Notes under the pieces: model-generated
What the model saw: the letters and a program-made list of their open reading frames with translations, nothing else
Told to the model about the DNA's origin: nothing
Database searches by the model: none
Position numbers and translations under genes: made by a program
Part shown: positions 1-25,609 of the stretch, piece after piece
How positions within the stretch are numbered: position 1 is the first letter of the stretch
How the letters are laid out: every line of letters begins with the position of its first letter
DNA from: Proteromonas lacertae
Taxonomy: Eukaryota
NCBI GenBank assembly: GCA_002245135.1
Contig: NGBS01000599.1
Location: forward strand, 1-64,000
Direction: 5' to 3'
DNA: 64,000 bases

Positions 1-3000
1 GTTTCAACTGAGAAAGTAAACTATCAGTATCAGTCATTACATAGTGTTAGCTTATCAGAACCATATTTTTTTCCAATACATCATACCAATATTTTGCATT
101 TTGAGTTTAGATAGTGCTAAGATAACCATTCCAATTTGTATAGGTTTTATTAATTTCATATAGCTTCTTATGAAAATGTGCAATTCTTAAATCACCTTCA
201 ATAATGATAAAGTCTTTAAACCATGGATCACTTGCAGCATCAATCATTTGATCTTCATTAGTAATTAAAGATATGTTACTTCTCTTTTTCAACACGTTCC
301 ATAAATTTACCGTATAAACTATTCATTAATTTCTTTATATAGTCTGGCAGTAGTATTTTGATTGTTTTCTTTAGCTTGGACTCTTTTTTGTACCATAGTA
401 TTAATATATTACCCATATATAGACTTCAGTAAATCTCATTATTCTATACACTTTACCCACTTTATAGCCATGTTCAACTGCAAACTTCAAATTTTGGTAG
501 TGTATTATATATTTTTCTTTAGGATACAAATCAGTTATTAATTTCTCAGTAGCATGGTAAGTACTTCTTTCTTTATGTATAATACCAAGATTTTCAGCTC
601 TTTCAGTTTGTATATCAGATAACCATTCTTTAGGTATTTTCTTCCTTTCAGGTAACAATGGGTATTCTTTAAACTTGTCTTGTAGCTTTATAGGTAACTC
701 GATATCAACTTCCAATATATAACCAAAATCATTATTCTCCAATCTATCTTGATCCATTTCTTCATAATATGGCAAATCAAGTATACTTTCTAATGTAATA
801 GAATTTGGATCAATAAATTCAAAGTCATCTAAAGGCATTTTACAAGAAGCCATAACTGAAGGGTATAAAGAATTATAGTCTTGATATAATAAGAATTTAC
901 TAGGTAAAGTTTCATCATAATTTTTCATAAATTTGTTATTTGCATCTTCCTTACGCTTACCAATATATGATAATCCTCCGTATAAACCATTCAATATAAA
1001 ATCATAGTATTCAGGTTCACAAAGTAATTTAAGTTCCACATCAGATACATGCAAGAATAAATTGAGTGATAAACTGGGTAATGAAATATACCAACAAGGA
1101 TCTATGTGAAAAGTATCAAATATATTATCTCTAAAATCATTAAATATAGACTGAAGAATATAAACATCAATTTTCAAGTAAAATAAATTATATTCACGTA
1201 TATTATCAAATCCAAATATTTGATTTACTTGCATAGCAAAATCAAATTCTTCAGGTTTAATAGTTTCATTATCATTCAATTTAGACTTAAAATTATCTAT
1301 AGTAAGATCTTTGAAATTTTCTTCAAAAGCTTCAAGAGATGTCATATGTTCATATGGAAAATAATTCTTTTGAAGTAAGTATTTTTCAATAATTTCATCA
1401 TCTAGGTAATGTCCATTATATTCTTTAAAATTCTCATAAATTGTTTTGAATTTTTCTTTCTTAGTATTATTTAATTCTGCTGTAATTTTTAGATCACTAG
1501 TTAAATTTGCTAGAGAACCTGCTAAGAATAAATAACTGTCAATAAACACCAAATTCTTGTATTGTATACACTTATAGTTTTCATCTGTATTAGGTATAAT
1601 ATTGAGTGGACTATTAGTTATTGCAGCAAATTTGGCTAATTCCTTTACTATGAAATGCTGGTCATATTTCATAGCATTATGACCTATTATTAGTACTTTT
1701 AATTTTTTTATATCAATATTTAGATTCTCATTACTACCAATTGAAGCAATATAATGACCTGTGAAATGATCATGGTGAAGTACCTTTACATGATCAATAG
1801 AATTAAATGGTTTACCGCAAAAGTCACATTTTTTCTTTTTATTATGTATATCCTTAGCTGTTTCATCTCCATCAAAAGGTTTAGGATTATTTAGTCTGTA
1901 ATTGTAAACTGTACATATTTGATCATATATATTTAATATATCCAATACAAAATCATTTTCAATATTATGATCCTCATTTTGTTTATATTTAATCACAGTA
2001 AAACTGTTTATATCTGGTATTTTATTATCTACATAGATACAGTAAGAATAAAGCTTATGCCTAGCCATAATAGATTGCTCAGTTTTTGATAATTCTATTC
2101 TAGTATCATTATCATCTATTTCTTCCATAGATTTATATCTACTTAAATTCAATTCATTATCATATGGTACAAAATAAGTTTCAGTATCATAATACATAAA
2201 AACTGGTAATGTTTGGAGGTGAGTCCAATGTCTAAATTTTTAGTATGATTTTTCTTTATCATCTTTATCAGGGAATAATCTTAATACATTATCTTTATCT
2301 TGACAGTCATATATTTGGTGATTATTAAAGGATCCATCATCGTAAGTATAGAAGAGACAGTATGGACACACAAATATATTATTAGTATTATTCTTTTTAT
2401 CTATCATTTTTCTAAATAGAGCAGGTAAGGTATTTATTGTTACATAGTGTGAATTTCCATCTTCATTTTTTATTAGCAATAGATTTACAACACTATATTT
2501 TTTAGATTTCTTTTGTTTAGATAAATGAATGGGTAAGAATATTTCTTCTTTATCTTTAGCAATATCAATATAAAATATATTCACATTTAGTCGATTCTTT
2601 GTTTCAAACTTATCAATAGATTCATTATCTGTAGCATCAACAGGGAATGTTAACATACTCCAATCATGTTTCTTTTCATACATTTTGTATTTTTCAGGTT
2701 TATCTTTATTACATTGTAGATTATTAGAATATAATGAACATAGTACACTCCACTTAAAACATTCATTATCTTCATTTATTACATTTGTCAAACATCTAAG
2801 ACCTTGAAGTTTAGCAGGTAAAACAATAAAACTACTTCCACGTATCACTTTAAATTTTGTTACATATAATTCAATAGTATTTACTCTAGCAAAAGTAAGA
2901 CCACTTTGAGGATGATTTGAATCATCTTCTGATATTTGTGTAAATATATTCTCCAGTATAGTTTGTATTTCACCTACAGTAGACATTTTTGTTATTTCAC

Positions 3001-3574
3001 ATAGTCTACTACGACTAAATATAGAAACTTCATCATCACTGTCAGTAGACTCATCAGGTATATAAATTGAACGTACAATAAAGAAGAATTTAATCATATT
3101 CATAGTATCAGCTAGTTCATGTAATATATCTTTGATATCACTATTATTAACAAAATCATGATAACATTGTTGTGGTGTACTGTAATTTCTATTGTTATAA
3201 TTGAAAACCCATTTCCTGGTAACACCTTGAGATGATTTATCAACTTCTCTAGCATCACGTATTCTATCATTAAATCTTTGATTTTGGTTAGGTTTTGGTA
3301 GGGAAGAAGGCATTAATCCACCAAAGAATGTATCACTGATTATTGGTATATCATTATTGTATCTTTTTTTATTTTGAATAGCATCTGTACTAAATAATGG
3401 CGCTAATCTTCGTTTTGGAGCTTCTTCTGGTGGTGCAGGTGGAGGTGGTGGTGGTTCATCTGTATGTTTATGTTTATGATGATGGTGATGCTTATGTTTA
3501 TGATGTTTATTTATATTAAAAGTTTGTTCTATAAGCTTAAAAAATGCTTTTAAAAGCTTTTTATGTTTGCTCAT
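1..3574 (-). pseudogene. Protein-primed family B DNA polymerase (pPolB-A), disrupted
   Basis: ORFs 2240-3604 and 401-2197 are one frame split by a single TAA (EKSY*KFRHW...YYDTE). Motifs: vOTU-like DNECF/SHY, ExoI YYDTE, EndoVII-like HHDHFTG, ExoII GHNAMKYD, Pol A DYNSLYPS; Pol B KLMNSLYGK and Pol C MTDTDS follow further frameshifts at 1-420. Confidence 0.92.
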
Positions 3575-3620
3575 TATATAGACAGAATTCGCGAAATAAA
3601 TCAAAAATGGAAATATGAAA

Positions 3621-3649
3621 TTTGATTGGTCGGATGATTTGATTGGTCG
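3621..3649. promoter_or_regulatory. Tandem inverted CCAAT boxes in the divergent promoter
   Basis: TTTGATTGGTCG repeated at 3621-3632 and 3638-3649, in the ~160-bp gap between pPolB-A and ORF 3734. Confidence 0.5.
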
Positions 3650-3733
3650 ACTTTAAAAATAAAAAGAAATTTTCATTTTCATTTTTCTCAAGATTTTTAG
3701 TCATTTTTTATTTTCATCTCTCCCTTATATAAA

Positions 3734-4510
3734 ATGAGTAACGAAACACCCTATGAAGCTACAGATGTAGAATTCAGTGATTACTACAAAAATCCAAAGT
3801 TATGTAACAAGTGGATTATTAAAGGAATTGTTGAGAGTATTACAGTTAAGCCTACTAAAACTAGTCAATATGTATTGACTACTTTTGTTCATGATTTGGA
3901 TCATAAAGTTGTAATTAATAATGGAAGAGATTTTGAAACATATTCAGCTGATGAAGTAAAATATGTATTAAAACAAATTTATGATAGAAACGAGAATGAC
4001 TTTATAGAAAAAATCATTCGTGGATATTTGATTAGTGTAGGATGTAGAGAACCTCAACATGGTATTAAATACTTCCACAATTTCAATTCTATTATGATAT
4101 GGGATAATAGTAACTATAGAGTTCCATCTGATGTTGATGTTGGTAGTAAAATTGCTGTAAGTGTTGTTGATAATCAAATCTCTATTAAGAGTAATGGTAC
4201 TCAAAACTTTGTTAATCATAGAGTTTGTAGTGATATTGTTGGTTATGATGAAAATCCTGATTTAGCTACAACTATTAGAAGAAGTAATGAGAAGAAAATT
4301 AAGAAAGAACAAGCTAATCAAAACAAATTTGTTTCACCTCCCAGAATTAAGAGAACTAAGATAGAAGATAGTGATTTAATTAGTACTCGTAGACCATTCC
4401 CTGCTAAGAAAGTAATTAGTAATGGTTTTATTAGTGCTGCTAAAGTTATTAACTTTGGTATTGGTGGTAACGCTTTAAGTGATAAGGATTTGGGAGAGGT
4501 AGAAGAATGA
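3734..4510 (+). CDS. Element A hypothetical protein (beta-rich, possibly OB-fold/ssDNA-binding)
   Basis: Intact 258-aa ORF between pPolB and integrase; beta-strand-like pattern with a basic C-terminal tail (SPPRIKR). The fold is a guess. Confidence 0.6.
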   Translation: MSNETPYEATDVEFSDYYKNPKLCNKWIIKGIVESITVKPTKTSQYVLTTFVHDLDHKVVINNGRDFETYSADEVKYVLKQIYDRNENDFIEKIIRGYLISVGCREPQHGIKYFHNFNSIMIWDNSNYRVPSDVDVGSKIAVSVVDNQISIKSNGTQNFVNHRVCSDIVGYDENPDLATTIRRSNEKKIKKEQANQNKFVSPPRIKRTKIEDSDLISTRRPFPAKKVISNGFISAAKVINFGIGGNALSDKDLGEVEE

Positions 4511-4582
4511 TTTAATTATATTTTAATTCATTAATTCTTTAAATATATATCATTCATATTTTTTATATATATATTGTTTTGA

Positions 4583-5702
4583 ATGTCACTACAAGATAAA
4601 ATAAATGAGTTATACAAAATATATGGTTATTTAAACAAACGAGACTTTATTAATTTCTCTGTAAATGAACTTGAGAATAACTTTAAAAAATCTGACATTA
4701 AAAAAGCTAGTAGTGAACTTGTAGAGTCTAAACCAGATTATCAAATCACTGCAACTAAAAGGAATAGAATTAAATATGAAATTGAAAAGTTACCTGGGTC
4801 ATATCAAATAGATTTGGTGTTTTTCAACAATACAAAAGTTCCATTTTTGTTAATTATAGAAGTTGTTAGTCGTAAGTGCTGGATATATTATGTTAAATCT
4901 AAATCAGAAAATGATGTGTATCCAGTGTTTGAAAAATGGTTTTATCAGGGTATGCAATTAACAAAAGTCTGGTATTATCTTTGGTAAGAAATTTTTAGAT
5001 TTGTTTAACAAAAATCATATAAGATTTATACTTAAAGAACGTAATGAACATAATATAATAAAAATATTGGATAGATGTGTGAGAACTATTAAAGATATGT
5101 TTTAAAGAAAAATTAATACATTGTCTGATGAAGAATTTGATAAAATTAACAATATTGAATCATTGTGTAATATAGTATATACTGTTGTAGATGATTACAA
5201 TGCAAAACCACATTCTGCACTCAATAATTTAACTCCAAATGAAGTATTCAATGATTTTGAAGTCCAAGATAGATTGTATAAAGAATCCCATGCTAGAAAC
5301 TTAAAGAAGCGTAAAAGTGATACTCATTTTAAAGCTGATGATTATGTAAGAATAAAAGAACGTAGAGATAACAAGCTTCAAAAAACTACTTATTATACTG
5401 ATAAAGTATACCAAATACACATAGTTGAACCATTTTCATATTCTGTTAAGAACTTGGATGGAACAATACCTAGAGAATTCAATCCTAGAGATATAGGCTC
5501 ATATAGATTCAAATCACATGAAATTAAAAGAGTACCTGTTAATAGTATTACAACAAATGGTATGTTTAGATTAAGACAAATTCATAGCATAAATAATGAA
5601 GCACAACCTATAGAACCAGATATTCAACCAGTACCAGAAGGCAGAAAAAGTAGATATGGTAGAGTATATAAGAAAAATTCGCTATTTAATGATTTCGTAT
5701 AA
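4583..5702 (+). pseudogene. rve-family integrase A, disrupted
   Basis: YQIDLVFF...IIEVVSRK; frameshift/deletion near 4960; ILDRCVRTIK; in-frame TAA at 5103-5105; YNAKPHSALNNLTPNEV; SH3-like FKADDYVRI. Confidence 0.88.
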
Positions 5703-5849
5703 TTTTTTATGCTTTTATTTATGTTATTTTTTACATATTAAACAAACACCAATTCTCATTAAAGTAATGAATTCAAAGTGTTTTTCAAGTATATGAATTA
5801 AAGCATAAACCAGACAAATTTAAAGTATATATTAATACTTATAAGTTCT

Positions 5850-6105
5850 TCATCATCTTCTCAAACTCTTCAGCTTTTTTTCTTTTCTCTTCTTCAATTC
5901 TCTTCTTAAACTTTTCTTCCATTTTCTTTTCTAATTCATCGTTTTCTTTTTTCATCTTTTCTTCCATTTGTCTCTTTTGTTCTAATACCCATTTCTTTCT
6001 TACCTCTTCTTGTTTTCTTTTTCTCTCTGCTTCTTCTTGTAATTTTCTAACTCTTTCTTCTTCTTGTTGTTTTTTCTTTTTTTCTTCATCTTCTTGTTTA
6101 TTATA
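5850..6105 (-). pseudogene. K/E/R-rich coiled-coil C-terminal gene fragment
   Basis: Reverse strand reads KQEDEEKKKKQQEEERVRKLQEEAERKRKQEEVRKKW...; no start codon; cut off at the boundary of the GC-rich block. Confidence 0.5.
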
Positions 6106-6107
6106 AT

Positions 6108-6455
6108 TTGATTATAATAATCCAAATAATAGCGTCTCTGAAGAAGTCAAGTATCGAAGAAGAAGGAGGAATAAGCAAGAGATTGATTGTCTTTAAGAAC
6201 AAGAGCAAGAAGAAGAAGAGTCGTAAGAACAAGTGCAAGTTGATGTACCTAGACGATATTGACTCTGCCGATGATGAGATCATCGTAAGAAGTAGCAGTA
6301 TCATGGATCCTAAGAACTTAGATGATATGATTAACAGCATGGGAATGACTCCATTCTCATCACCTTCAAAGTCAACAACTAAGACCACAGTCAAAGGAGT
6401 TGGAGGTGCTAGTTATAAGACTTCACAGGAGCCGATAGTCCCGATCTATAATTAG
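6108..6455 (+). CDS. Small basic hypothetical protein (possibly 5'-truncated)
   Basis: Open 115-aa frame with Lys-rich patch KNKSKKKKSRK and module-type codon usage. Confidence 0.35.
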   Translation: MIIIIQIIASLKKSSIEEEGGISKRLIVFKNKSKKKKSRKNKCKLMYLDDIDSADDEIIVRSSSIMDPKNLDDMINSMGMTPFSSPSKSTTKTTVKGVGGASYKTSQEPIVPIYN

Positions 6456-6502
6456 CTTAGTTGTTCTTTTCAAATTGATTATCTAAGTAAAGTTCCCGTA
6501 TA

Positions 6503-7800
6503 ATGAAACGGAGATCACCTAGCAAAGATAATCCTTCAACTAATTAGAGAAGAGCAGTGACTTACTTACAAAGGAAGCTTCAGCAAGAGTTCAAAAACCA
6601 GCTAGCAACAATCAATAACGAGGAAGACATCTTGAAGCTCTTTGACTCTTATCTCTGAGAAGATAAGACTGAAGAAAAAGAAGTAGTCAAGGACAGAGAA
6701 GTCATTAGCAAGGAAGATAATGAACCAGAAGAAGATCTATCCAACTCTTACTACTTGAAGAACAACGCATTACTCAAGGACTACCTCCAGGAAGTGAGAT
6801 CCCGAGATCCTAACAACCCCTACAACATACCTTATCAGCAGATAGATGATTACAATAAGTACGTGAACTTAGCAACACCGGAGAGGAGATTGGAGCAGCA
6901 ATAAGAGGTTGTTGGAGTTAGTCATCCGTTAAGGAAGTACTTCCGAAGGTGATCCAACTGGATAAATACGCCGACGTCTAGGACATAAGGAAGAAGGTGG
7001 AAGAGCTTAAACAAGTGAACTACGGAGCTTACAATCAATACATATACAAGTAGTAGAAGCACTTACTCCATACTCACTAGAGATACTGGAAGACTCCTAA
7101 TAAGTAAATTCAATGGAATAGTAGGTAAAGCAGTCAGAACCATCATGATACAGCTACAGAAGGTGCCTTACAAGATAGGTATAGTCTTCCATCCAGTATT
7201 TGTTGGGATGACGATTAACCTCCTGATCCCTTGCAGTACTTACAGGACATGTATGGTGTTATCAAGAGAAGTGTACCCGTTTGAGAATCAACTAGTTCTA
7301 TTCCGATCAGCCCCAGGAAGTGCCCGCGATGATTACAAGAGGATTGCAAGAATATTGGTTCAGCAACTAAGAGTCCAGATGTGCCTTCTTCCCGTGGAGC
7401 AAAGCTAACCTGTGATGGTAATCCCTTACAATGAGATGGCGATGAAGCAAGGATTGTTAGCTATGATCAGAGAAGTAATCCCTTACTATTCCAGGAGCTA
7501 AAGGAGAAGTATCAAGAGGTTGTCAGCTACGTGATAGAAGCATCAGATAGCATAAGCTTAGAGATAGGAGGACAGAACAACTTAAACCTCGTAGCAGGCA
7601 ATGGAGTTTATGGAAATGCAATCCAAGACAATCAGAGATGATAAGATTAGCAATTAGTCGATACGCAGTTCCCGTACTTAGATCAGCTGAAGTTCTTGAA
7701 GCAGTGTACCTTGCATCTCAAGGTTCATCATCTCCAGCGAGTACAGCACTACCGATGATGATGAAGAGTTCATAGAAGAGTGTTCCGAGGAAGTAAGAAG
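6503..7800 (+). pseudogene. Decayed hypothetical gene(s) of the GC-rich module
   Basis: ATG 6503 MKRRSPSKD... continues protein-like through in-frame TAG/TGA/TAA stops; ORF 7145-7408 is a fragment. Confidence 0.45.
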
Positions 7801-7859
7801 CCAAGTGAAAGATGAACTCAATCTATTGATATTCCAAGAATATCAGAACTTTACCAGGC

Positions 7860-8222
7860 AGTTCATAATTAACACGATCAGAAGGATAAGTGGTGCTGCT
7901 TACTTTACATTCCAAGGACTAACAAGATCTCAACGATGTTCCCAGCAAGGATGGTGACTCTTATTACTACGATCCTCTCGGGCATGTGCCTCCTGAGGAA
8001 GACTGGTTAATAGAACAACTACAACAGCTCAAGAGATTTACTGCAAGTGGAAGAGTCCCGTACTTACTTAAGATCAACAGGATAGCGCATAGCCTGGACT
8101 TGTCACAGGCAACTTACAAGAAGCTGATTATCACCAGGTTCTTATCAGTCTACTTTCTATACAACATACTCAGTCAAGAGAAGTCCTTTAAGGAAATCCT
8201 GTGGGTATGCTCGATTAAGTAA
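7860..8222 (+). pseudogene. Adenain-like (Polinton maturation) cysteine protease remnant
   Basis: Across frameshifts: FIINT..., KWCCLLYI (KW where HW is expected), then YYYDPLGHVPPEE, matching the Polinton protease YFDSxGxxPP motif; lies directly upstream of the capsid gene. Confidence 0.45.
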
Positions 8223-8320
8223 GAGACAACAGAATGAACTCAACAAGAAGCCTTATCGTAAAGTGTAAGTAAGCTATTGTGTTATTTCCCAAAGTGATTT
8301 ATTACCTCCTGAATATCGCA

Positions 8321-9447
8321 ATGAGCAAGATCCATACTGGTCCATCCTCCATCATCTCCCAGGAACATGACTTTATCGATGAAGTGCAACCATTAGTAGC
8401 TCTCGATCAACTCATCCCTTTAGTTGCAAGTCAAGGACAACGAGTAGAGATTCCTAAGGCTGCTCTTAGCGATGAAGTCACCTTAGAGATTGTCAAGGAT
8501 AACTTTATAAACTTCACTAAGTCCCACTTACAATATCGACTACATGTAGAAGCAGCTGGTCTCAAGAAAGTTACTTTAGCTGATACCTTCAACCTTGAAA
8601 GTATTACGAGATCTTCCGAGGTATCATGACTAAGATTATGCGTAAGGCAAGTAAGATGGCTCATCACGGGATGTACTACGATGGAGTCTGGATTGATAAG
8701 AAAGGTAAGGTCATTGAAAATGGAATGAAGTTCACAGGAGGTGCTAATGATGATTATGACTACCAACAAACGATAAAAGACAATGCCTTCGACTTGCTTA
8801 TCAAGATCCCTTGCAAGGAGTTGTTTAACACCATCCTCAGTCATCCTACTGATGTCTACTTCGGGGAGAAGGTTTACATCTCTATACGATGGCAAGACAA
8901 AGGTAAGATGGTGGACATCGTTGATGCTACTCTAAAGGATGAGACTATGGTAAGTCTCGAGGATATCTACTTCAAGGCTAACTACAACAAGGACATTGCT
9001 TGCAGCGAGAACACCAAGAAGTACTGCCTTACAAATCCTGTGGACTTCAACGATGTCCATGTTGTTAGAACTCATGTAAGTAACAGCTCCAGCTACTTCA
9101 GCTACTCCTTCAATATCAATAGTTACATCGGATCTTACGTAAAGTTCATCCTTTACAGATGCTATGACAAGGAAGGTAATGTGGTGCCTGTTGCGATGAC
9201 CTCTAAGTTCAAGTGGTGGATCAATGACTTCAACTACAACCCTGACTTCCAAAACATGGAGACTTATGATAGTTACGAGGATATGAAGAGCTTCATCAAG
9301 GGTAGCTACTACGACCAGGCAATTGACCTACCCTTCAATGAGAAGTTCCTTGAGATCCTTAACTTTACCACCTCGGACTTAACCAACATCGAGCACATCT
9401 TGATACGAAGTAAACGTTTAAAGAAAGTCACCTTGATAGGAACATGA
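8321..9447 (+). pseudogene. Putative double-jelly-roll major capsid protein, one frameshift near 8627
   Basis: EVTLEIVKDNFINFTKSHLQYRLHV resembles the Polinton/PLV MCP N-terminal motif; beta-rich; two overlapping ORFs total about 375 aa; viral context. Confidence 0.65.
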
Positions 9448-11672
9448 CCGACAACTACCTTGAGTGAATCACCACTAAAGCTACTTTTAGGGTCGGGTAT
9501 GTTCAAGATAACATCCCAGGTTGTGTACTCAACATGAAGGATGGGATTGCCAGAGTTATCATCTTGAGTAAGTATACTATGGATCTCATTGATCTTCGTA
9601 AGCTGGTCGTGGGAGGTAAAGTCATTGATCTGTGATAAGTGTAAGTACTGCAAGTGATGGAGATCGTTGATATTGCTTTCAAGGCCAGGGAACTTCTCTT
9701 GGATGGTATTGATCCAATTGTAAGTCTTTGTGGTATAGGCAAAGAGATCATTGAACCAGAAGAAGACTGAGAACTTATTCTCAGCATCACCATCAACCAG
9801 TCTCCTGACTTTACCTTGGATCTCACCGACTGAGGTTGTAAGTGATGCTAAGCTAGTACTGATAGAAGTAAGATCGGAAGAGGATGCATTGGAGTTGTTA
9901 TCATTACTACCACCTGAAGATGCTAGAGATGCCTTGATAGACTCTAAGGAAGTATTTACTTTGAACAGCTCCTGGAAGACTGATTGTTGTTGTCCTTGAA
10001 CTAGTGGCTCACCAAGATGCGATAAGAGTAGTGCCTGGTTCTCAAAGAGTGTAGTGTTGACCTTAGGCTTAGGAGATCCGATAAGGTGGTTGATGGCTTC
10101 TAAGTTCTTGAAGACTGTGTTGTAATTGCTACTGCTGCTGGAGCTGCTTCCTAGAAGATCAGTGATTGAAGAGAGATCTACAATGGATGGAATGGAGGAT
10201 CCTCCTGAGGAACCTCCCGAAGATGCATTACCATTGCCAGTAGCTATCCACTTACCGATCATCTTTACATCCTCGTAGATGTCCATCAAGTAGGTGAACA
10301 TGCTTAGCTGTTCCTTATACTTCTCGGGACATGTTCCTATAACTCCATTCAAGGCAACGTGGGCTGTCACCAGATTGACAATGTGGCTACTATAGATAGC
10401 TTGCTGGGACTTCAACTCAATCTCCTTCTTAGCATTCTCAGTCGGTACATTGGGGATGAAGTAGTTAGTGATCAGGTCAACTTTATCACTGAGAGTAGGA
10501 GAAAACGCTACAGGTCGCGCAATGTTGGAAGAGTTGCTTCTGGTTGATATTCAGGACCTGGGTAAGATCCTTTACTGAGATGACTTCATCGTAGAGAGTA
10601 TTGGTACTGTTATCATCGTCGGGGTTGATATCAATTCCTTGCTTCTCAAATTCTTTAGCGATGGCCTGGCAGTAGCTATTGAGACTTTGAAGATCTCCAT
10701 TGAGTTGAACTAAAGCAGCGTTGATATTGTTCTGACTGTAAGTGGTAAGTGAATTCACTTGAGATTGAAGACCGATAGTGAGCTGGTAAAGCTTATCGAT
10801 ATATTCAAAGAGATTGTTAGCTACTGGTGCTGACGGAGTTGAAGAAGAAGGAGAGTCATCATCGGGAGTGTTGATACTATCTGGGATCAAGGAGGAGCTT
10901 AACTTTTCAAGGAGGTCGTAAATGGAGGAAGGTCTATTGAGATCAGTAACTTCCATGGAGGATGGATCATATCGGTGCTTACCAAGGAAGTCCATTGCAG
11001 AGTAGTGATTCTCGGTCATAGCAATCATCGTCTTAGTAAGGGTATCCTCATGATTCTTAAGGACTGCACTAACCTCTCCGATGATACCTATGACTTCATT
11101 GACTTTGTTGAGAGTAGTCTTGGTGCTTATCAAGTAGTTGCTTCACGTTCTCACTCATCGGCTTTATCAGATCATCCATGGCCGACACGGTAGCTGATAT
11201 CTCCTCCAACACCTTGTTGCTATCGGAGGTCTCTTGTTTAGTGGTATTGGTAAAGGACTCAATAGTCTTCTCCAGCTCCTTGATAGTGTTATTGATCACG
11301 GTCGTGTTGGAATTGCTATCACTGTTGGTATTATGAAGTTGTCTTTCAAGGTCTTGGATCTTCTCAAGGAGCTCTTCATGCTGCTCATCGTTCAAGGACA
11401 CAGGAATGCTTTGTAAGGCTAACTTCATCCTGCTAGAGATCTCCTCATAGTTGGTATTGCAAATGAAGGAGGAGTTGCTTAGCATCCTTTGAAAGGTATC
11501 GTTGATCACTCCGATATCGACATTAACAAAGAGTTGTCTTTGAAGGACATCTCGTAGCTCCACAAGAGTGTGGTTGATGTGATCGAATTGATGATTCATC
11601 AGCTCCTTGACAGTTGTAGTCGGTTCAAAGAAGGAGGAGCTGCAGTTCTCATGAAGAGTGTTGTCTTGACTC
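9309..11672 (-). pseudogene. Long coiled-coil/Ser-linker protein (fibre-like?), two frameshifts
   Basis: ORFs 11096-, 10486-11133 and 9309-10415 join through frameshifts near 11130 and 10515 (bridge PVAFSPTLSDKVDL...KEIELKSQQ); heptad segments separated by Ser/Gly/Asn linkers. Confidence 0.6.
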
Positions 11673-12201
11673 AAATCTATATCAATAGATCCTATATATT
11701 TGTTTTTCATGGTATTGAAACTTTCACCTTCATATATTTCTAATGTTTTCTTTCCTCCATCTAAATTCACTTCAATTTCTTTTTTAGCAGGTAGAATATC
11801 CATTTTCTTTAATATCACTTCCATATGATGAACACTAAATATTTTATTAATTTCTATTCCTACAGACTTAGTTAATACATCTCTTATTTCATAATGGTCT
11901 ATATCTACATCAAGTAATGTTTGCTTCTTTTGATAATTCATCATTAAATACTATACTAGCATTTGTATATTTAAGGCGAATCATTTCTTTAATCTTACTT
12001 ATCTCGCTTGACTGAAGTATTTTTTTCAATCATTCTGTCTAATATCTTAACTGTTTTATTGAAATAATTTTTACATTTGTCTTCAAAAACAGATTTTTCA
12101 AGAAGGAATTGAATAATACCATCTAAACATATTTCATAAGTATCTACTGTAGAAAAAGCTATTTTACACTTTTCTGCTTCGATATATATTCTAGTTAACA
12201 A
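11672..12201 (-). pseudogene. Divergent Hsp70-family remnant
   Basis: RIYIEAEKCKIAFS..., KSVFEDKCKNYF, SSEISKIKEMI, IRDVLTKSVGIE, ILPAKKE and LEIYEGE..KNKYIG parallel the Hsp70 motifs RLRTACERAK, RARFEEL, STRIPKIQ, LDVTPLSLGIE, TIPTK and QVYEGE in order. Confidence 0.75.
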
Positions 12202-12595
12202 CGACTTAGTTATTTTATCATCATCTATTCTTTATTTATTTCTTCATATCTTTTCATATTAGTTACTTATAAACTGCTCAAATATATAACATGATCTATT
12301 ATAAACTGCTTATACACTGCTTAATGATGCCTGATTTGGGAATGTAAGTATTTAATTTACATTGAAGTGAGAATATATTGGATGATTATGCTTTTTTTCA
12401 GCTGGCATTTAAAATGCAAATGATTAGTTTGAATAAAGGCTTGTATCAAATTTCATAATAAAATTAAAAAGAACTATATTTTGTCTGTTATAGATTTGTA
12501 TAAGCAAATTTATGATTATATTATTAAATCTATATTATAATAAATTGTTCATTACATGAATTGATATTAAAGAACAGGACAAATCGTAAAAGGAC

Positions 12596-12738
12596 TATCG
12601 CGCGCGATAAAGAAATTTGCGGGATAAAGGAGATAATAATATAGAATAAAGGACCTGGCACACCGAGCCGCATGACTCGGCTCCTGGCGCACCAAATCAA
12701 ACATTCATAAATTACGTGACATATGTCATATTATGTCA
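12596..12738. repeat. GC-rich palindrome/hairpin cluster
   Basis: TATCGCGCGCGATA palindrome (12596-12609), GAGCCG-7nt-CGGCTC hairpin, CCTGGC(A/G)CACC direct repeat, TGACATATGTCA palindrome. Confidence 0.7.
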
Positions 12739-13794: not shown

Positions 13795-16700
13795 ATGAAC
13801 CCTTTCATCCCTCCTTATTATTATTATTCAAACTTTAATTATTATAGTCCACCACCATTTGGAGCACCTTATATTCCTCCTCCACAAAATTATGGATTTA
13901 ATCCCATGCCCATGCCATATCCAGGTATGGCACCTCCTAATATGTATGAACCACCTCCACCTATTCAAAATATTCCAGTAGCTAGAAATTATGTTCCACC
14001 AAGAAATCTAGTTACAAATACAAATCCTGGTTTCAATTATTATCCTGGAAATATAGGAGTAGATTCAACACCTCAAATTAATATTCCTGAACCAGGATTT
14101 GTAACACCACCTCCCAAGAGAAGATTAGATTTCGAAAACATAAGTCCTCCAAAAATACAAAGAAAAGGAGGTATGCAGGTTCCAATGCCTAATCCTAATC
14201 CTAATCCAAATCAACCTGTTGTTAATCAACCTCCACCAAATGCACAACAGCGTAATAGAGTAGCAGATTTAAATTTATCTTATCAAGAAGAAAGAGATTT
14301 AAGAGAAGCAAGCGATATATTAGAAAATCATCCTACTAAATTATTAAAATTACAATATGAAAAGAGATTATATTATATGGACTTAATTCAGAGAAGTACA
14401 GATAATTACAGTAGAACATATCAAATTAACTTTTTAAACGATGTAAATGGTATGGATCCAGATGCTGTAGTTGAAATTATAACTGATCCTAGTAGTCCAT
14501 TAATTACTAAAATAAGAGAATATTTGGAAGATGTTAAATATATAAAAGTAACATTAAGTTTTAGAAGTGGTTATATAGGAGTAGACGATCCAGATTATAA
14601 TAATCCAAATGGTAATAAAATAACAAATTGGGTTTATTTAGAATGTAAACCTGTAGTTATTACAGAATCAGAAATGAATGTAGCTCATAAAATATTAAAA
14701 GATAGAATAAGAACAGAAATGGGACCTTTATGGCATACTGAAAAATCAAGTTTAAAATTTAGACATGTTGGTGAAGTTGAAGTTCATTTAGTCAAAGCAA
14801 CTGCTATGGCAGGTAGTGGTAAAAATAAAGAACTTCCAGATTGGATAACTAATAAAAAATGTGTTATATCAATAGATAATAATAAAGAAAATGATCAATT
14901 ATGTTTTCTATATGCTATAGCAGCAGCATTTTTTCATGGTAATAATAATAATAAGAATTTAAATAGAGTAGAACAATATAAAGATTATATTAGAGTTAAC
15001 TACAATTAGAGTATATTATATTTCCCAGTAGATCCTATTAAACATAATAAACATATTCATGAATTTAAAACAATAATTCATCTAACATTAAATATATTCA
15101 AAATAACAGATAAAGAAGTAGTTCCTATATATGTAATACATATAGATAAATTCAATAATTATCCACATGTGAATTTATTATATAATGATAAACATTATTC
15201 TACTATTACAAAATTAAATGTAATATTAATACCTAAAGGAAAGAAGTGTAAAAATGGTTATCCAAGATGTAATTATTGTTTTGCTTTATTATCAACAGAT
15301 GAAAAAAGAATACAACATGAAAAATATAATTGTCAACAACATAAAGGTATTATAAGAAATTTCCCTGAAAAAAATATTCAATTAGAATTTAAGAACTTTA
15401 AATATATGAATACCTATAGTAATATATTGGGATACTGAAGTTTATCAGGAGAAAGTAACAGATCCAATTTTAAATGAGAAAGGTATTTTATCAAAGCATA
15501 TATTATCCAGTTGGTGTTTATATGTTGTATCTAAATATCCTAATATATATCCTAATAAAATTGAGTATGATTTTAAAACACCTAAAGATAATGAAACAGA
15601 TTTAGAGGATAGATTAATAGCTAAATTTATGGAAATACAAAAAGAAATATTAGATTTATATGAAGAAAAATTAAAAAATCCTGAAAAAATGATAGGATAT
15701 AATAGAGAAGATCCTAAAAATAAATTGAATTATTGTATATACTGTAAAGAACCATTTGATTATAGAAATAAGAATAAAAAACCTGTATTACACCACGACC
15801 ACTTTAGTGGACAATATATAGGTAGAATATGTAATAATTGTAACTTCCATGTAAGTTTAAATAATATGCCAATCCCTTGTATTGCTCATAATTCCAAAAA
15901 TTATGACAATAATTTCATTATTAGAGGATTTTCCAGATGGGATAATAAGTTAAGAGATGAATTTTGTAAAGAAAATAATATTGATCCTAATGTAAATTAT
16001 GCTTCAGATACTGAATCTGATAGTGATACTGAAGAAGAAGAAGATAATACTATTACTAATACTAATTCTATTCCTGTTCCACAGTAAGATAGTGATACAT
16101 TTACTCCATTACCTCCTTATACTAATGGCTTTATAACAGATAATAAAATAAAAGATTATGTGAAAGATTTGAGAAAAGAAAAACAACAAGAAAAAGATGA
16201 TAATAATAATAATAATTTCAGTATGAGTCCATTACATGATTCTTTAAGTGATATGGAAACTCAAGAAGTTGAAAGTGAAGTAATCCAAATTATTAATGAA
16301 GAAGTTAATGCATTATTAGAATTAGAAGAAATGTTAAGAAGAGATAGCCCTAGAAATGCAGAAGATGTTATAGATGAAATAGATGAACAATCTGCTTATA
16401 GAATTATTAAATGTAAAGATGGTAAAATAAGAAAATATAAAAACAAAAAATAATATAAATCACAATTATTAGTATTACCTAAAACAGATAATAAATTTTT
16501 ATTAATAAAGTTCAACAAATTATACTTTATGGACTCATATCAATTCTTACCAAGTTCTTTAGATTCTTTAACAAAGTCATTATATACTCAAGCAATAAGA
16601 GATAATGGAAATTATCAAAAATATTTCAGTTATGTATATGAAGATATTTATAAAAAATATTCTGCTCCTGGTAAATTAGATCATGATATGAAAATTGATG

Positions 16701-18712
16701 CTTTTATCCATAAATGGTGTTTATCTAAAGGATATTTTCCATATGAATATGTGAACTCATTATCTAAATATTTCAATACTTTTGAACTACCTCCTAAAGA
16801 AACATTCTATTCAAAGTTAAAAGATGATAATACTGTAACAGATGTTGAATATGCTAGTTGTCAGGCTTTATGGAAAGTTATTAGATGTGATAACTTAATG
16901 GAATACAATTTATTTTATCTCAGATTAGATGTTCTTACATTAACATGCGTATTTGAACATTTTAGAGATGTTATATGGAATAATTTTACTTTGGATCCAT
17001 TATGGCATTGTAGTTCACCTGGTTTATCTTGGAGTATATTCCTTAAAAATTGTGATGTAAAAATTGATTTAATAAGTGACTCTGATATTTATGACTTTAT
17101 ACATTCTGGATTAATAGGTGGGATTTCTATGGTTGGTAGTATGAGATATGCAGAGTCTTGGAATCATTATCAACCTCAATGGCAAGAGAAAAATAAAAAG
17201 GAAGTACAGGATCCAGATAATCAAGCATATATTATGTATATGGATTATAATTCTTTATATCCAAGTACTATGGCTAGTATGAAGTTACCATATAGTGAAT
17301 TTGAATGGATTGAACCAACTACTGAAAATGTTAAGAAAATATTATCATTACATTACTATGAAGAACAAAGAGAAAAATATTACAATACAGAATGGATTAA
17401 TAAAAATATGTATGGATATATTCTAGAAGTAGATATTTCTCCTCCTAGTAATAGTAATGAAAGAAAAAAATTTGCTGAATATCCTTTGTTACCAGAAAGA
17501 AAAATAGTTGACTATGATAATTTATCTGAAATACAAAAGAAATGGGCAGAATCTTTAGGATTAGTTTCAGAAGCTAAAAATAATATTGATAAACCATATA
17601 AAGTTAAAAAGTTAAAGTCAAATGTTCCTAAAATAGTATGTGATTTAACAACAAAATACAACTATGTTGTTCACTATCAATATTTGAAATTTGCATGTGA
17701 AATGGGTTATGTTATACATCATATTCATAAAATTATCAGATTTAAAGAGTCTAATTATGCACATAACTTTGTAATGATGAATCATAACTTAAGAAGACAA
17801 GCTAAATTAGAAGGAAGGGATGCTGATGCTGATACTTTTAAGCTTATTCTAAATAGTGCTTATAAAAAGACTTGTGAAAATACTGAGAATAGATGTACTT
17901 CCAAATTGGTTAATAATGAAGAAGACTTTTTAAAGTGTACTTCCAATCCATTTTATAGAAGTTTTATTGCTATAGATAATAGTAACTTACGTATATGCAA
18001 ATTTCAAAAATATAAATGCACTATTGATAAACCATTTTATATTGGTATGAGTATATTATGTGAATCTAAAAGGTTAATGGCTCAATTCTGGTATGGACAT
18101 TTATATAGGAAATATGGGACTAGCTTAAGATTATTGATGAGTGATACTGATAGTTTCATATTTATGGTTAAAACTAGAGATTTCTATATGGATATTATGA
18201 ACGATCCACATTTTGAAAAGAAAGTTGATACTGGTAATCTTAATAAACAATACTTAATAACTAAAGGTATACACTATTCAAATGTTAATCAAAGTTCAGA
18301 ACTTAACTTATTAAAAATAGAAGAAAATAAGAATGGTTTATACTCTATTACTAGATTTGCAGGATTAAAACCTAAAATGTATGCCTATGAAAAAGTAAGA
18401 GTAGACGATGATATACATACTGTTACACATGATAGTAGAGCTAAAGGAGTTACAACTGGATATAGAATTAAAACTTGTGATTTTGACTTTTATAGAAAAA
18501 TATTAACAGATGCTGAAGATGAAAAGTCTTACAGAGTTGATAAAATCAAACAATATAGTTTCAGAAGTATTAACCAAACTTTATATACTATGGAACAAAA
18601 TAAGTTGGCTTTCAGCATATTTGATTCTAAAAGGTATTATTTAGATGTTTATCATAGTATTCCTTTTAATGATTATTATCCACCTATTATTAATAACACT
18701 ACTAATGTTTGA
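13795..18712 (+). pseudogene. Protein-primed family B DNA polymerase (pPolB-B), disrupted
   Basis: Five ORFs join via TAG 15007, a frameshift near 15410, TAA 16085 and TAA 16451. Motifs: NDQLCF/KHY, YWDTE, HHDHFSG..CNNCN, AHNSKNYD, DYNSLYPS, KLILNSAYKK (G lost), SDTDS, LKPKMYA, AKGV. Confidence 0.93.
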
Positions 18713-18806
18713 AACTTTGATATTTCTTTTTTATATTATTATTATTATAATATTATGATATTTTTTATTATTATTTTTTTTATATTATATTATAAAATAA
18801 AAAATA

Positions 18807-20168
18807 ATGTATTTCGGATGGGATCCTGCTAAAGCATTTTTTAATACTATGAATGATATAGGTAACTTAATGGAAGAAAGACAACAGCCTCCTCCTAAAC
18901 CTGACTATTCTTTACAATATTATATGAATAATGGTAGAGATGCTATTAAACGTTTTGCACCTCCTGAAAAATATAACCCTTATCCTAATCCTCAATATTC
19001 TCAATATCAAAATTGTTTACAACAACTATATAATAAATATCATTATTTAAGTGATAGAGATTTTATTAAAATGGTAATGAATCCTGTTAATAAAAATGAA
19101 ACTCCACCACCTATAGATGCTATAAAAGAATTTTTAGCTAGACAACCTGTTCGTCAGATTGTAGACTTTCACTATAAACGTGACCATCCATTTGCAAGTA
19201 TTAAAAAGCCTGGATGGTTCCAGATGGATATAGTTTTCTTTTTACCAGAACTTAAACATTTATAAATCATAGAAACTAATTCTCGTAAAGTGTGTGTTAT
19301 TCCAATACAAAGTAAAGGAGGTGATGAAAATTTAAACGCTTGTAAATCGTGGTATTATAAAGAAGATGCAGATTCTTATTTAAATGGAAATTATCAACCT
19401 AATATAGTAGCTAAAAGAAGAGTTATTAGTATTTTGAGTGATTATGAAAATGGTTTTGAAACAATAAAAGAATTTTGTAATAAAGAAGGTATAAATACTT
19501 ATTAAAAGAATCCTTCAGAACATAGAATAATGAGTGTATTAGATAGAAGTGTTTCTATTGTTAAAAAACTATTGTATAAACGTCTTATAGATATAAATTT
19601 TGATGCTCCTTTTCGTTCTTTTAATGTTAATAATAATCATAGAGAATCTATGTATAATCAATATATGTCTGAATGGATAAAAACATTTAATAGAGAAGTA
19701 TATGCAGTAGTACAAGACTATAATAATAAACCTCATCCTGCATAAAAAGGATATACTCCAAATGAAGTATATCATTCTGAAATATTACAAAAGAAAATAT
19801 TAGTAGATAGTATAAATAAAAATGTAGATAATGAATTTAAATTAGAAGATAAACAAAAATTTAAAATAGGTGATATTGCTAGATTTAAAGAAAGAAGAAG
19901 ACAATTAGATAAAATAACTACTTGGAGTGATGATGTTTATATGATTATAAATAAGTTTAGATTTTCTTATCAAATAGGTGATACTAATGGTAACTTTGTA
20001 CCTACTGTTAGTAATCAGAGGTTTAAGCATTATGAATTAGAATTAGTAGAAAGAGCGCAAGATAGAAAAGCTTATTTTAGAGCGTATCAAGCAAACAGAA
20101 GATTTTTTAATCAACATTTTAGAAAAATATTACCAAGGCCAGCAACAATTCAAAAGGGAATAGTATAA
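18807..20168 (+). pseudogene. rve-family integrase B, three in-frame TAA stops
   Basis: One frame throughout: FQMDIVFF, IIETNSRK, ILSDYENGF, VLDRSVSIVK, YNNKPHPA*KGYTPNEV, FKIGDIARF; stops at 19263, 19503 and 19743. Confidence 0.9.
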
Positions 20169-20201: not shown

Positions 20202-20873
20202 TTAAAGTTCTGATATGTCAATAACTGCTCTGCTATTGACAGGAACTTTTGATAAATTATTATTATCTTCTGGAGGAGGAGGAGGAGGTTCTTCTTGTTT
20301 AATTTTGGGCTTTGGAGTTTCTTTTTTTTCTTTAATGATATGGTGTTCTTTTGAAACTCTTCTTCTTTTGTTATATTTTCTATCTTCTTCATAATCATCA
20401 CTATCATTATCACTACTACTACTACTACTACTATCACTACTAGAACTATCATTTTCTATATCAACATCTTCATACAATAAGTTTTCTATTTTATCTGGAT
20501 TCACATATGAAGGAATTACTGGATATTTGAATGTAGACCACCTATATATATTAATTTCTGTTTTCTTTAGAAAATACCACTTTTCATTTTTTGATTTAGC
20601 ATCTTCTGAAAATTTTTGAAAATCACCTGTAAATTGAATATGTAATGTGTTGAATTTGGCAAATATTTTTATATTACTATTAACATATTTTATTTCATCA
20701 CAATTTGTTACAGCTATTGTTACTAAATTATCCTCAAAAAATTGATTCTGAAATAGGATATCATTGTATAAATTCATAATATAAGTTGTTGGTAAATATT
20801 TCATATAATCATATAAATCAAATTGAAAATCATTAATTAATACATTATTTTTTGAATTGAATTTAATTTGCAC
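20202..20873 (-). CDS. Element B hypothetical protein with acidic/basic/Pro-rich tail
   Basis: 223-aa open frame with poly-Ser/Asp, KRRR and poly-Pro; start uncertain. Confidence 0.5.
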   Translation of the reverse strand: MQIKFNSKNNVLINDFQFDLYDYMKYLPTTYIMNLYNDILFQNQFFEDNLVTIAVTNCDEIKYVNSNIKIFAKFNTLHIQFTGDFQKFSEDAKSKNEKWYFLKKTEINIYRWSTFKYPVIPSYVNPDKIENLLYEDVDIENDSSSSDSSSSSSSDNDSDDYEEDRKYNKRRRVSKEHHIIKEKKETPKPKIKQEEPPPPPPEDNNNLSKVPVNSRAVIDISEL

Positions 20874-20905
20874 TTTAGAAGTAGTAAAAATTATTTTGTA
20901 TTTAT

Positions 20906-21720
20906 TTATAAAATTTCTAATGGATAAAAAATAGTATTATCATCCAAAATTTTATTAAGAGGAATAGTATTTTTGCAGAATAATGAATTAATTTTACTTC
21001 GTGTATTTGTTTTTCGGTTTTTTGCATCCATATACTTATCTTTCAAATAAATAAAAATATCTTGATATGCAACAAAGGATAAACTATAATATTCTGGATT
21101 GTCATCACATATATAAAATTTTAGTATATTTATTTTATTTTTGTAATCACAACTATATTTAATAGTTGTCCATATATAATTAATATCATTTTTGAGATTA
21201 TTATTATGTTCCTTAAAATATAATTTGATAGGATTGTGGAATAAACAAAATTTGAAATATCTTTCATCCATAATATAAAAAGGAATTTCACAAGACCATG
21301 TATAAAAATGTTGACCTCTATTCATATTAGTAATTATTTTTAAACACATAAAAGTGTTGAATAAGAAAATCCAATTTCGATACCCAGTCCAACTGTGGGT
21401 ATCTTCATATGCAATATAATAATTGCCTTCCATGTATTTTTTGACACAGGAATAATCAACACCAATATTTCAGACATTATTATTATAATATATAAAGATA
21501 TCTGATTCTGTAATTAAAAAATTATGTAAGTGTTTGCTATGGACAAATTCCTCCCAACAATATACACCTTGAAATTGACCATTAAAATTTTTATATCTAA
21601 TTTTTATAATGTCTTCTATATCAAAATTTGAGAGTGCATCTTCAGACAATTTGTTTAATATTACTTTTCGACGAGATATTATTCTCCGTCTTTTTCTTTT
21701 ATTATATCTACCTAATCCAT
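20906..21720 (-). pseudogene. Degenerate adenain-like protease homologue
   Basis: From ATG 21720: LSNFDIEDIIK...FQGVYCW resembles the Polinton protease N-terminus; GYRNWIFL sits where GTHW is expected; stops and a frameshift lie upstream of ORF 20906-21433. Confidence 0.35.
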
Positions 21721-21795
21721 TTTTATATATATTATAAAGTTGATTAACATTTGCATAAGAAGTGCCAAAATTAGTTAATTCAACAGGTAAATTAA

Positions 21796-23460
21796 TTATT
21801 CAGCAGGTATTGCAAATATACTATTAGAAGTTGCAGGATTTGATTTTAAGAAGCTAAATAATCCTCCAGCATCTAATAAACCAAATATAGAACCTGCTGC
21901 AGTTACTAAGACACCTATAAAACCTATCCATCCTATAAATCCTTTAACATCCCAAGGTGAAGTAGGATAGTTAGGAAGCCAATTTTTACTATCCCAGAAT
22001 TTTTCAGGCTTTCCAAAACTAGCAAATTTAGCAAACTGAGGAAGTGCAGCTAAGAAAAATTGTATATATGGATGATTTCCTAATAAAAATGAACTTGCAA
22101 AGTTCCACAAAAATCCAAGTGGTAGCTTTGAATTTCTTATAGAATCAGGCAAATAGGATTCTATAGAACTATATTCAGCATTATATAATTGTTCTAATGG
22201 TGGTAACCTTCCACCAGATAAATTTTGTATTATTCTATAATAATCAGGTAAAAAATGCTAAAAAACATAAAATAATCCTCTCATTCCATAATAACCTTTC
22301 TAATATCCCCACCAAGCTATAGCTGTCATTATTACAGCATGTATTTGTTTCATTACATATTCTATTTCTACTCTATTTGGAGTAACTCCACCATATAAAT
22401 AATTCTTCATTTCATAATAAAACATAGGAAATATCATTAAAACATTATCAACACATTTTATTAAATTCCACAACATCACCATGTTGTATATTATCCATAG
22501 CTTTTTTAAATTGACTACCTTCATAACCTTTCCACTTACTGCAAGCATCTTTTAATATTCTCATACCTATATCATATTTTTCAGCATCTGAAGCTCCATT
22601 CCATCCTTTAAATGTTTCACTATTTCTTAATTTTGCTATATTTTTTGACCTCCTTTGATTTTCATCTATAACAGTTGATTTATTTATATTTATAGGATTA
22701 GGATTTTTAATAGCTTTAAATTTATCCATTGTTTTAGGATCAGCGTGAAGCATATAATAAAGATAACCTCTTTCTTCTATATCTTCTGGTTTAAGTAATC
22801 TAGGAGCTAATTGATTAGCTAAAGCTTGATTATCATTAAATTTTTTAAAGTCAGGAGGATATTCTTTTGCTGCATCTTCCATATTTTTTAAAGCTGAAAA
22901 TAATTCTTGTTTTAATAATTCTTGTTCTAATTGATTTATATTTCTATATCTAAATTGAATTTTATCTCCTAATATGAATATTTCATAAGGCTTTTCTCTA
23001 GCTGCTTGATAAAATGTTTGATTAGTAGGAACTCCCATAGCATTTTTTAATTGTTCTGTTGTCATATTTACTATTTCAGGATTTAATTTAACTAAAGGAT
23101 TATTTATAGTATTTACTCCATTATCATAAGGATGAAAGTATTCATCAGAATTCACTTCTTTTACAATTGAATTTAATTTGACAGGTAAAACTATATTAGC
23201 CCTAGGATTTCTAGGATCTATATATTTTGTATTATATTTACCTAAAAATGGAAGGGAAGTAAAATCATTATTCAAAAATGGTTGATAATATTCTTCATCA
23301 AGACGAGGTATCTTTTGATATACCTTCATTATATAATTTTTCTAAGTTCCAGTTATAATCCCAACCAACTTGCTGGCCATTTTTAAATAATCTACCAACT
23401 CGCAAAGAATTATTATTATTAACAGTTGTATCTGTTGTATTAGTTGCACCTCCTAATTTT
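21796..23460 (-). pseudogene. Disrupted gene with C-terminal hydrophobic/membrane segments
   Basis: ORFs 22448-23329, 22300-22548 and 21796-22152 join via a frameshift and two in-frame TAGs; hydrophobic segment GFIGWIGFIGVLVTAAGSIFGLL. Confidence 0.5.
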
Positions 23461-23523
23461 TTATTATTATTATTATTTAATAATCAACTATGACAGCGAT
23501 GCCTCCGTGGTATCTTATTTTTA

Positions 23524-24999: not shown

Positions 25000-25061
25000 T
25001 ATATAATATATAAATAGAAATATTATCAAAAAGAAGAATATAAAGATAAAGAATATTATTA

Positions 25062-25289
25062 TTAAGCTTCATTTAATAAATTTTCAAATATAATAATAAC
25101 TACATCTTTTCTGTTAACTGAAGCGCTAGTTCCACCTACACCTGGAATTTTATTTATTTTAACACTAGCATCAGCTATACCTTTTACTAATTTTTCATAA
25201 TCTGGTCTATTGCTGTTTGTGTACAACATTGAGCCAAATAAATGTTGGTCGTCCAATTCTCTTTGAGTTGAAGCAATAAGATTAGCCAT
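25062..25289 (-). CDS. Short ORF, possibly a truncated capsid N-terminus
   Basis: MANLIAST...RPDY...KINKIPGVGGTS...VIIIFEN is loosely like MCP N-termini. Confidence 0.25.
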   Translation of the reverse strand: MANLIASTQRELDDQHLFGSMLYTNSNRPDYEKLVKGIADASVKINKIPGVGGTSASVNRKDVVIIIFENLLNEA

Positions 25290-25609
25290 ATTATTCCTGT
25301 ATATATTAGAAAATCTCAACAAATACAAAATCAACAACAATAAGTACCGCCACCTCCACTTCAAACTCCATCAACTCAAAATCAAAATCAATCACAAATG
25401 GATCAAAAAGCAGAAGAAGCATACAACGAATTAATGGCTGATTTACCTCCACAAATGAAAGATTTATTAAACAATATAAATCCATCAACATTAGAACAGG
25501 CTATATTTGAATTAAATAGAATAGCTGATGAAGCTCTTAAACAACTGCATAAATATCTGTTATACTTTTAATGATAACTATTCTTTGTTTTTGTCTGTAA
25601 TAATATAAA

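Follow-up and report, generated by a model that had tools for sequence, protein, structure and literature searches.

A GC-rich capsid-gene block in an AT-rich Proteromonas lacertae contig is probably an eroded fragment of a compositionally foreign virus

Introduction

How does a stretch of DNA that carries a viral capsid gene, and whose base composition departs abruptly from everything around it, come to lie in an AT-rich protist chromosome? The question is raised by positions 6,132 to 11,672 of contig NGBS01000599.1 from Proteromonas lacertae (assembly GCA_002245135.1), of which the first 64,000 nucleotides, hereafter the window, were analysed. This GC-rich block sits in a cluster of two AT-rich elements, both with broken genes for a protein-primed polymerase B (pPolB) and an integrase. 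An initial annotation, made from the letters alone, offered two explanations: acquisition from a virus adapted to a higher-GC host, i.e., a host jump, or a structural module that complements capsid-poor neighbours. We consider it probable that the block was captured, within a cluster of resident elements, from a double-jelly-roll virus of foreign composition, likely Polinton-like, and has been eroding since. The first proposal is supported as far as the foreign virus is concerned, whereas its GC-rich host is plausible, not demonstrated. Protists widely harbour endogenous viruses that contrast with them in GC content (PMC10120064), and a Polinton, by definition, carries pPolB, integrase, protease, ATPase and two capsid proteins (PMC11071308).

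Base composition of the block

Maximum-likelihood change points place the block boundaries at 6,132 (2-log range 6,117 to 6,165) and 11,673 (11,644 to 11,695), in agreement with the sharp edges originally described, and GC content between them is even across eleven 500-nt bins (chi-square p = 0.80). Its level of 41.9% stands against 26.6% in the left flank, 25.9% in the right flank and 25.6% where the host genes lie, which makes the increase 1.6-fold and not the doubling first suggested. There is no second GC-rich stretch of this kind elsewhere in the 64-kb window. Most of the shift lies at third codon positions, where GC (GC3) is 0.51 in the block versus 0.14 to 0.16 (around 0.15) in the flanking elements and host genes; the corresponding values are 0.43 versus 0.37 to 0.39 at first positions and 0.33 versus 0.27 to 0.30 at second positions. 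Lys is encoded by AAG in 83% of cases, Tyr by TAC in 75%, Phe by TTC in 69% and Ile by ATC in 61%, and the preference for C- and G-ending codons noted at the outset is thus borne out.

CpG depletion is milder in the block (0.49) than in the flanks (0.30), and TpG is not raised (1.09 versus 1.08 to 1.25). In-place hypermutation of AT-rich DNA was considered and rejected, because the shift is mainly at third positions and involves codons of both the A>G and the T>C type. The suggestion that several stops in the block fit C>T changes is not supported: every stop codon starts with T, there is no close orthologue for polarising changes, the capsid gene and the long helical gene next to it have no in-frame stops, and CpG and TpG behave as just described.

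The bias also differs from plain GC pressure. Third-position GC in the block is 0.68 in codons that begin with two A/T bases, 0.42 in those for Asp, Glu, His and Gln, and 0.35 at four-fold sites, a contrast that is flat in five control sets drawn from six distant Polinton loci of 34 to 48% GC. These loci come from pPolB scans that returned 7 distant loci (25 to 30% identity), of which L007 was left out of the controls; none of the 7 carries the capsid family of the block. The block has 9 A/T runs of at least 4 nt versus 56.7 ± 5.2 in base shuffles, so the scarcity of such runs noted at the outset is real. In its coding pieces, A/T-only stretches of at least 6 nt number 11, compared with 37.7 ± 5.0 in synonymous-codon shuffles and 65 in base shuffles. 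Host genes and resident elements have 0.97 to 1.01 of the synonymous expectation, and the controls 0.53 to 1.05. The avoidance of A/T stretches therefore exceeds what GC content and codon bias explain. On the coding strand, the depletion extends to runs of A, of T and of G, and both AATAAA (0 versus 5.7 expected) and ATTAAA (0 versus 3.9 expected) are absent. Homopolymer sequencing error was rejected as the source of the run depletion because frames of 177 to 377 codons remain open.

The capsid gene and its family

The major capsid protein (MCP) gene is present in the block, although not as the intact open reading frame (ORF) that the initial annotation implied. It consists of two pieces in different frames (Table 1), between which approximately 16 codons (about 50 nt) are absent at 8,603, and its 3' end is deleted. 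The match ends at residue 388 of the 449 residues of P0031, an intact relative; residues 389 to 449 are gone and with them the last three strands of the P0031 model, leaving the second jelly roll incomplete. In a family profile search of 1 to 28 kb, profile positions 104 to 119 and 409 to 463 gave no significant match. Past approximately 9,393 the capsid frame continues to a stop at 9,447, antisense to the next gene. Since the coding strand turns to minus at this point, a deletion probably joined the 3' ends of two converging genes, the capsid gene and the helical gene, both of which are broken by deletions and frameshifts. Judged from its sequence, the window copy is dead and no capsid would be made from it.

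A search of 1.84 billion representatives returned 15 matches at E <= 0.001, of which 14 form one family with 33 to 44% identity. The fifteenth, P0013, was set aside as an unrelated repeat protein, and a profile search brought five further members. All 46 cluster members listed (of 50) are nameless proteins found only in Logan. No locus of the family was found in IMG/VR, JGI metagenomes or the phage records scanned. The family has no significant Pfam or PDB sequence match, and a word-index protein search did not recover it. Its members are 420 to 510 residues long. In a tree, the window capsid has a long branch and joins none of the well-supported groups. In amino-acid composition it lies inside the family range, which is therefore uninformative on the GC content of the relatives. 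The window copy anchors the family in a eukaryotic chromosome context.

The fold was approached via P0031, which is 35% identical to the window capsid. Its model, built from a 21-row alignment, has a predicted local distance difference test score (pLDDT) of 84.4 and a predicted template modelling score of 0.83. Foldseek matched it to the iridovirus and PBCV-1 capsids with E = 3e-13; it also matches faustovirus and virophage capsids, and viral capsids occur all through the list of matches in BFVD. Superposition on the PBCV-1 capsid gave Z = 23.4 with a root-mean-square deviation of 5.2 Å over 349 aligned residues; the PBCV-1 and faustovirus capsids (Z = 23) are closer than those of Sputnik and mavirus (Z = 17 to 18). 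Given the confidence of the model and these structural matches, a double-jelly-roll fold is predicted for the family, with two tandem domains that match solved capsids along the whole chain.

Other genes of the block

To the left of the capsid gene, the best frame path over 6,132 to 8,320 takes 9 shifts and crosses 8 stops, some of which may be true gene ends. The candidate cysteine protease adjoins the MCP gene, the same arrangement as in the Polinton locus L002. By eye, neither a catalytic His-Trp nor a Cys-Gly is seen in it, and searches of Pfam, PHROGs, PDB and Atlas gave no support. In pairwise comparison with Polinton protease-like ORFs it reached E = 0.05 to one and nothing to a second, so that what is left of the protease assignment is a likeness to the YYDPLG-type motif. 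Two of the pPolB-scan loci are unannotated Polinton-like genomes: L001, which covers 16 kb within an IMG/VR contig of 23 kb, and L002, with a length of 12.9 kb. Both have pPolB, integrase, an A32-like ATPase, and protease-like and capsid-like ORFs; L001 additionally has a repeat-rich, fibre-like ORF of 700 residues.

A coiled-coil-like gene is indeed present downstream, identified by weak, sub-threshold Pfam matches to coiled-coil and helical families. It may encode a fibre- or tape-like virion protein; its third piece has no relative in IMG/VR. For a packaging ATPase, neither an open-frame Walker A motif nor a match to a two-sequence ATPase profile was found within 1 to 28 kb, and a decayed copy within 6,454 to 7,724 is conceivable. 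Library scans gave no family match to a minor capsid protein (penton) for any piece of the block. As the initial annotation stated, the block itself is free of pPolB and integrase genes by Pfam; both are confined to the AT-rich flanks.

Junctions

Neither terminal inverted repeats, known from endogenous viral elements of this kind (PMC10120064), nor a target duplication were found at the block ends or change points. Matches between the two ends are short, with at most 11 nt in direct and 7 nt in inverted orientation. Two genes on opposite strands have lost their starts at the left end, one GC-rich on the plus strand and the other AT-rich, rich in Lys and Glu (K/E-rich), on the minus strand. 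The 18-nt copy at this junction (Table 1), possibly an end-joining filler, is one of six exact long-range repeats of at least 18 nt outside two pairs that resemble miniature inverted-repeat transposable elements (MITEs), and was observed post hoc.

At the right end, a single open frame spans the boundary, with GC3 of 0.19 on the AT-rich side and 0.58 inside the block. With a four-sequence Hsp70 profile, the right-flank piece and the piece upstream of it are the top 2 of 1,163 window pieces (E = 0.10 and 0.13) and collinear, in the order expected of segments from the nucleotide-binding and substrate-binding domains. The best PDB match of the Hsp70-like piece is BiP (E = 0.26) and its best NCBIfam match a chaperone model (E = 0.067). 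Pfam HSP70 was not matched, the PDB search with the upstream piece returned no Hsp70, and the word-index protein search found nothing for the AT-rich piece. The K/E-rich remnant on the left ranks 8 of 1,163 with the same profile (E = 3.7) and may be what remains of the opposite end of the Hsp70-like gene. For the right end, a homologous exchange of fibre genes was rejected, since the partner there is Hsp70-like; the fusion is therefore likely non-homologous, its open frame a matter of chance. The Hsp70-like fragment sits between two Polinton-like elements and could be a host pseudogene or viral cargo.

Table 1. Positions of the features of the block, its junctions and its neighbours in the window.
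Feature	Position	Strand	Description
GC-rich block	6132..11672	.	41.9% GC, GC3 0.51, poor in A/T stretches; both ends inside genes
Major capsid protein, N-terminal piece	8321..8602	+	Family profile positions 2-103, domain E 2e-19
Major capsid protein, second piece	8605..9393	+	Profile 120-408 of 463, domain E 1e-93; last 55-60 residues absent
5'-truncated ORF	6132..6455	+	107 codons to stop, K/S-rich; no significant Pfam/PHROGs match
Heavily broken coding relic(s)	6454..7724	+	No family match
Candidate cysteine-protease relic	7727..8219	+	Two frames; IINT and YYDPLG-type motifs; adjoins capsid gene
Long helical, coiled-coil-like gene	9396..11671	-	Three frames, 177 + 204 + 377 codons (758), no stops; cut at both ends
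Left junction	6098..6127	.	Perfect hairpin, 10-bp arms (6098-6120); 18-nt exact copy (6110-6127) of 14593-14610
K/E-rich coiled-coil 3' remnant, AT-rich	5833..6111	-	Start absent
Decayed AT-rich Hsp70-like gene fragment	11673..12231	-	Ends in putative substrate-binding domain; in-frame fusion to helical gene
Protein-primed polymerase B gene, AT-rich, broken	401..3652	-	PF03175 E 2.4e-18
rve-type integrase, AT-rich, broken	4583..5702	+	rve/rve_3 E 0.016 / 0.006, below curated cut-off
Second pPolB and integrase, AT-rich, broken	13795..20168	+	PF03175 E 5.9e-21

Origin of the block

A foreign origin is supported because the sharp, uniform shift in composition cuts through genes and because of the fold of the capsid family. 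A virus that had evolved under sequence pressures other than those of this genome would have infected or entered a cell of this host. Part of its linear genome would then have been captured in or beside the Hsp70-like gene, between two resident elements, either by non-homologous repair or through nested insertion of the whole genome and later loss of both ends. Later deletions would have removed the approximately 50 nt from the capsid gene and brought the converging capsid and helical genes together. Several points weigh against this account. The window's own capsid piece, modelled as a single sequence, has a pLDDT of 31.8 and is not usable, so that the predicted double jelly roll is seen in a relative of the capsid and not in the window piece itself. 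In sequence, the family profile does not match the canonical Polinton-type capsid of L002 (probability 0.3%), and the label 'Polinton-like', though likely, is taken from fold, gene size and neighbourhood. The scores behind the Hsp70 assignment are individually weak (each E >= 0.07). Control locus L001 (48% GC) is itself partly depleted in A/T stretches (0.50 of expectation, compared with 0.63 to 0.99 in others), which makes the signature of the block extreme and not unique. A misjoin is possible at junctions known from a single assembly, and many stops in endogenous viruses have been found to be assembly artefacts (PMC10120064). As to the host of origin, virophages of different GC classes are found together in the same host (PMC8547959), and the hosts of giant viruses are poorly predicted by codon use (PMC11702301).

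The block could instead have arrived as part of a recombinant virus, in which the AT-rich pPolB and integrase module at 401 to 5,702 gained a GC-rich virion module, integrated as one element and then decayed. The left integrase ends only 430 nt before the block (the second AT-rich element lies 2.1 kb to its right), the left element itself lacks a capsid gene from this family, and exchange of capsid modules has a precedent in EMALE02 (PMC8547959). However, the left junction removes gene starts on both sides, the right junction enters the Hsp70-like fragment where a homologous viral gene would be expected, a search for terminal repeats found none, and composition shows no gradient toward the block ends, all of which makes this route unlikely. 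We give still less credence to an assembly chimaera, with DNA of a virus or a co-occurring higher-GC organism misjoined into a repeat-rich viral cluster. Such an error would fit block ends that are sharp and inside genes, and misassembly is a known problem in viral regions with many copies (PMC10120064), but two misjoins without shared sequence would be required, the flanks on either side hold gene remnants on the same strand, and the multi-codon deletions within the block go beyond single-base errors; the hairpin and the 18-nt copy from 8.5 kb away at the left junction argue weakly in the same direction.

Least credible by far is the second of the original proposals, a functional module that supplies capsids to its neighbours. 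Neither neighbouring element has a capsid gene of this family or a Pfam capsid match, which would leave room for such a helper. Yet the capsid gene carries a frameshift and has lost residues 389 to 449, the helical gene is split over three frames, what might be a protease is a candidate only, no Walker A ATPase was found within 1 to 28 kb, element ends proper to the block are missing, and the neighbouring elements are broken as well. A more serious competitor, which we nevertheless think distinctly less than probable, concerns the donor alone and is otherwise compatible with a captured fragment: the virus would have belonged to a lineage resident in the same host, with its GC content and A/T-stretch avoidance imposed by its own polymerase or by the transcription signals of a helper giant virus, and no jump would have occurred. 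Low- and mid-GC virophages share one flagellate, where GC is thought to adapt quickly (PMC8547959), and the depletion of A, T and G runs alike need not reflect 3'-processing in a host. This is countered by the two resident elements, both of which are host-like in composition (GC3 of 0.15, no A/T-stretch avoidance), and by the lack of any further GC-rich stretch within 64 kb.

We therefore return to the eroded foreign fragment and to its donor. Because A/T-stretch avoidance is absent from the host genes and the resident elements, an origin in a higher-GC host is plausible. On balance, though less firmly than the capture itself, we favour a donor whose own host was richer in GC, with transcription or 3'-processing that disfavours A/T-only stretches. 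The host genes in the window are, we presume, Blastocystis-like, in which case related hosts near 42% GC exist. Across the genus Blastocystis, GC contents range from 21 to 55% (PMC12129017). At the same time, GC content and codon use of a virus need not track its host (PMC8547959, PMC11702301), and a host jump is plausible but unproven. A broader reading, which we offer tentatively and at less than even confidence, is that this double-jelly-roll family belongs to viruses of gut-type protists, that some of its lineages are under strong DNA-level selection against A/T-only stretches, and that the block is the fossil of one such virus that entered a far more AT-rich host.

With protist Polintons and Polinton-like viruses (PLVs), the block shares a capsid predicted to be a double jelly roll, GC contrast, a pPolB and an rve integrase nearby, and decay (PMC11071308, PMC10120064). 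It differs from them as a 5.5-kb fragment without terminal repeats, ATPase, recognisable penton or polymerase, with a GC content above that of both host and neighbours, and with a capsid family that has no significant match in Pfam, PDB sequences or IMG/VR. Of the genes that define Polintons (Polintoviricetes; PMC11071308), the major capsid gene alone is recognised in it. EMALE02 of Cafeteria burkhardae likewise joins capsid genes of another lineage to resident replication genes, and GC classes differ within that one host; however, EMALE02 is reported as one complete element without obvious degradation, whereas the block is dead, its junctions cut genes and its GC step is 16 points (PMC8547959). 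Blastocystis datasets contain viruses with pPolB and integrase whose virion proteins are unrecognisable by sequence (PMC8502044), and together with the rumen MELD viruses (PMC4409740) these resemble our locus in gene content and in their gut-type protist setting. The top 'MELD virus sp.' entry in BFVD is only 10% identical to the P0031 model, and four motifs of the capsid family had no match in the accessible supplement text of PMC8502044. Virophage-Polinton hybrids are known from the rumen (PMC4409740); rumen virophages have a virophage-type capsid, whereas the family described here is nearer in fold to PBCV-1 and faustovirus. The accessible text of the egovirus preprint (10.1101/2024.03.23.586382) contains nothing on the family, and within the literature covered, which leaves most subscription papers outside its scope, there is no account of the family or of A/T-stretch avoidance in Polintons.

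Because endogenous Polinton-like fragments with GC contrast are common, the locus itself represents ordinary decay. What it adds is a predicted fold and a eukaryotic chromosome context for the capsid family, which provide a handle for finding viruses of gut protists. Should the broader reading be true, the block would make visible a viral jump from one protist host to another that differs greatly in genome composition, and A/T-stretch avoidance could be used as a host signature. If a host or helper virus proves to match the avoidance, sequence data could serve to test the host range of these viruses and their switches of host.

Neighbouring elements and host genes

The two AT-rich elements are 33 to 36% identical in their integrases and 38% in their pPolBs. 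The second continues at 20,202 to 25,370 (minus strand) with a run of ORFs, several of them rich in Asn, Gln and Pro and without a Pfam capsid match, which may hold a different virion module. Between the elements, a GC-richer non-coding patch with palindrome-like motifs at 12,580 to 12,700 may be an element end or control region; it has no long match elsewhere in the window. Further GC-richer non-coding patches lie at the far edge of the second element (26,220 to 26,290 and 27,080 to 27,290), and contain a perfect 18-nt palindrome (26,242 to 26,259) and related ACCGACGG motifs. Two MITE-like elements follow at 28,397 to 29,206 and 32,434 to 33,067, with inverted arms of 115 nt and 275 nt that are 96% complementary.

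From 29 kb onwards, the host genes are AT-rich and of eukaryotic type (glycosyltransferases, WD40/EF-hand, LRR, PA14/HRM); they are long and open, which indicates good base accuracy in that region. Four genes for host glycosylation are clustered at 34,553 to 39,271 (GT15-like, a GT10 fucosyltransferase, a galactosyltransferase and LicD-like), and are followed on the minus strand at 39,467 to 41,347 by a single-ORF gene of the Na+/H+ antiporter family PF03553 (E = 3.5e-47), a family of putative bacterial origin.

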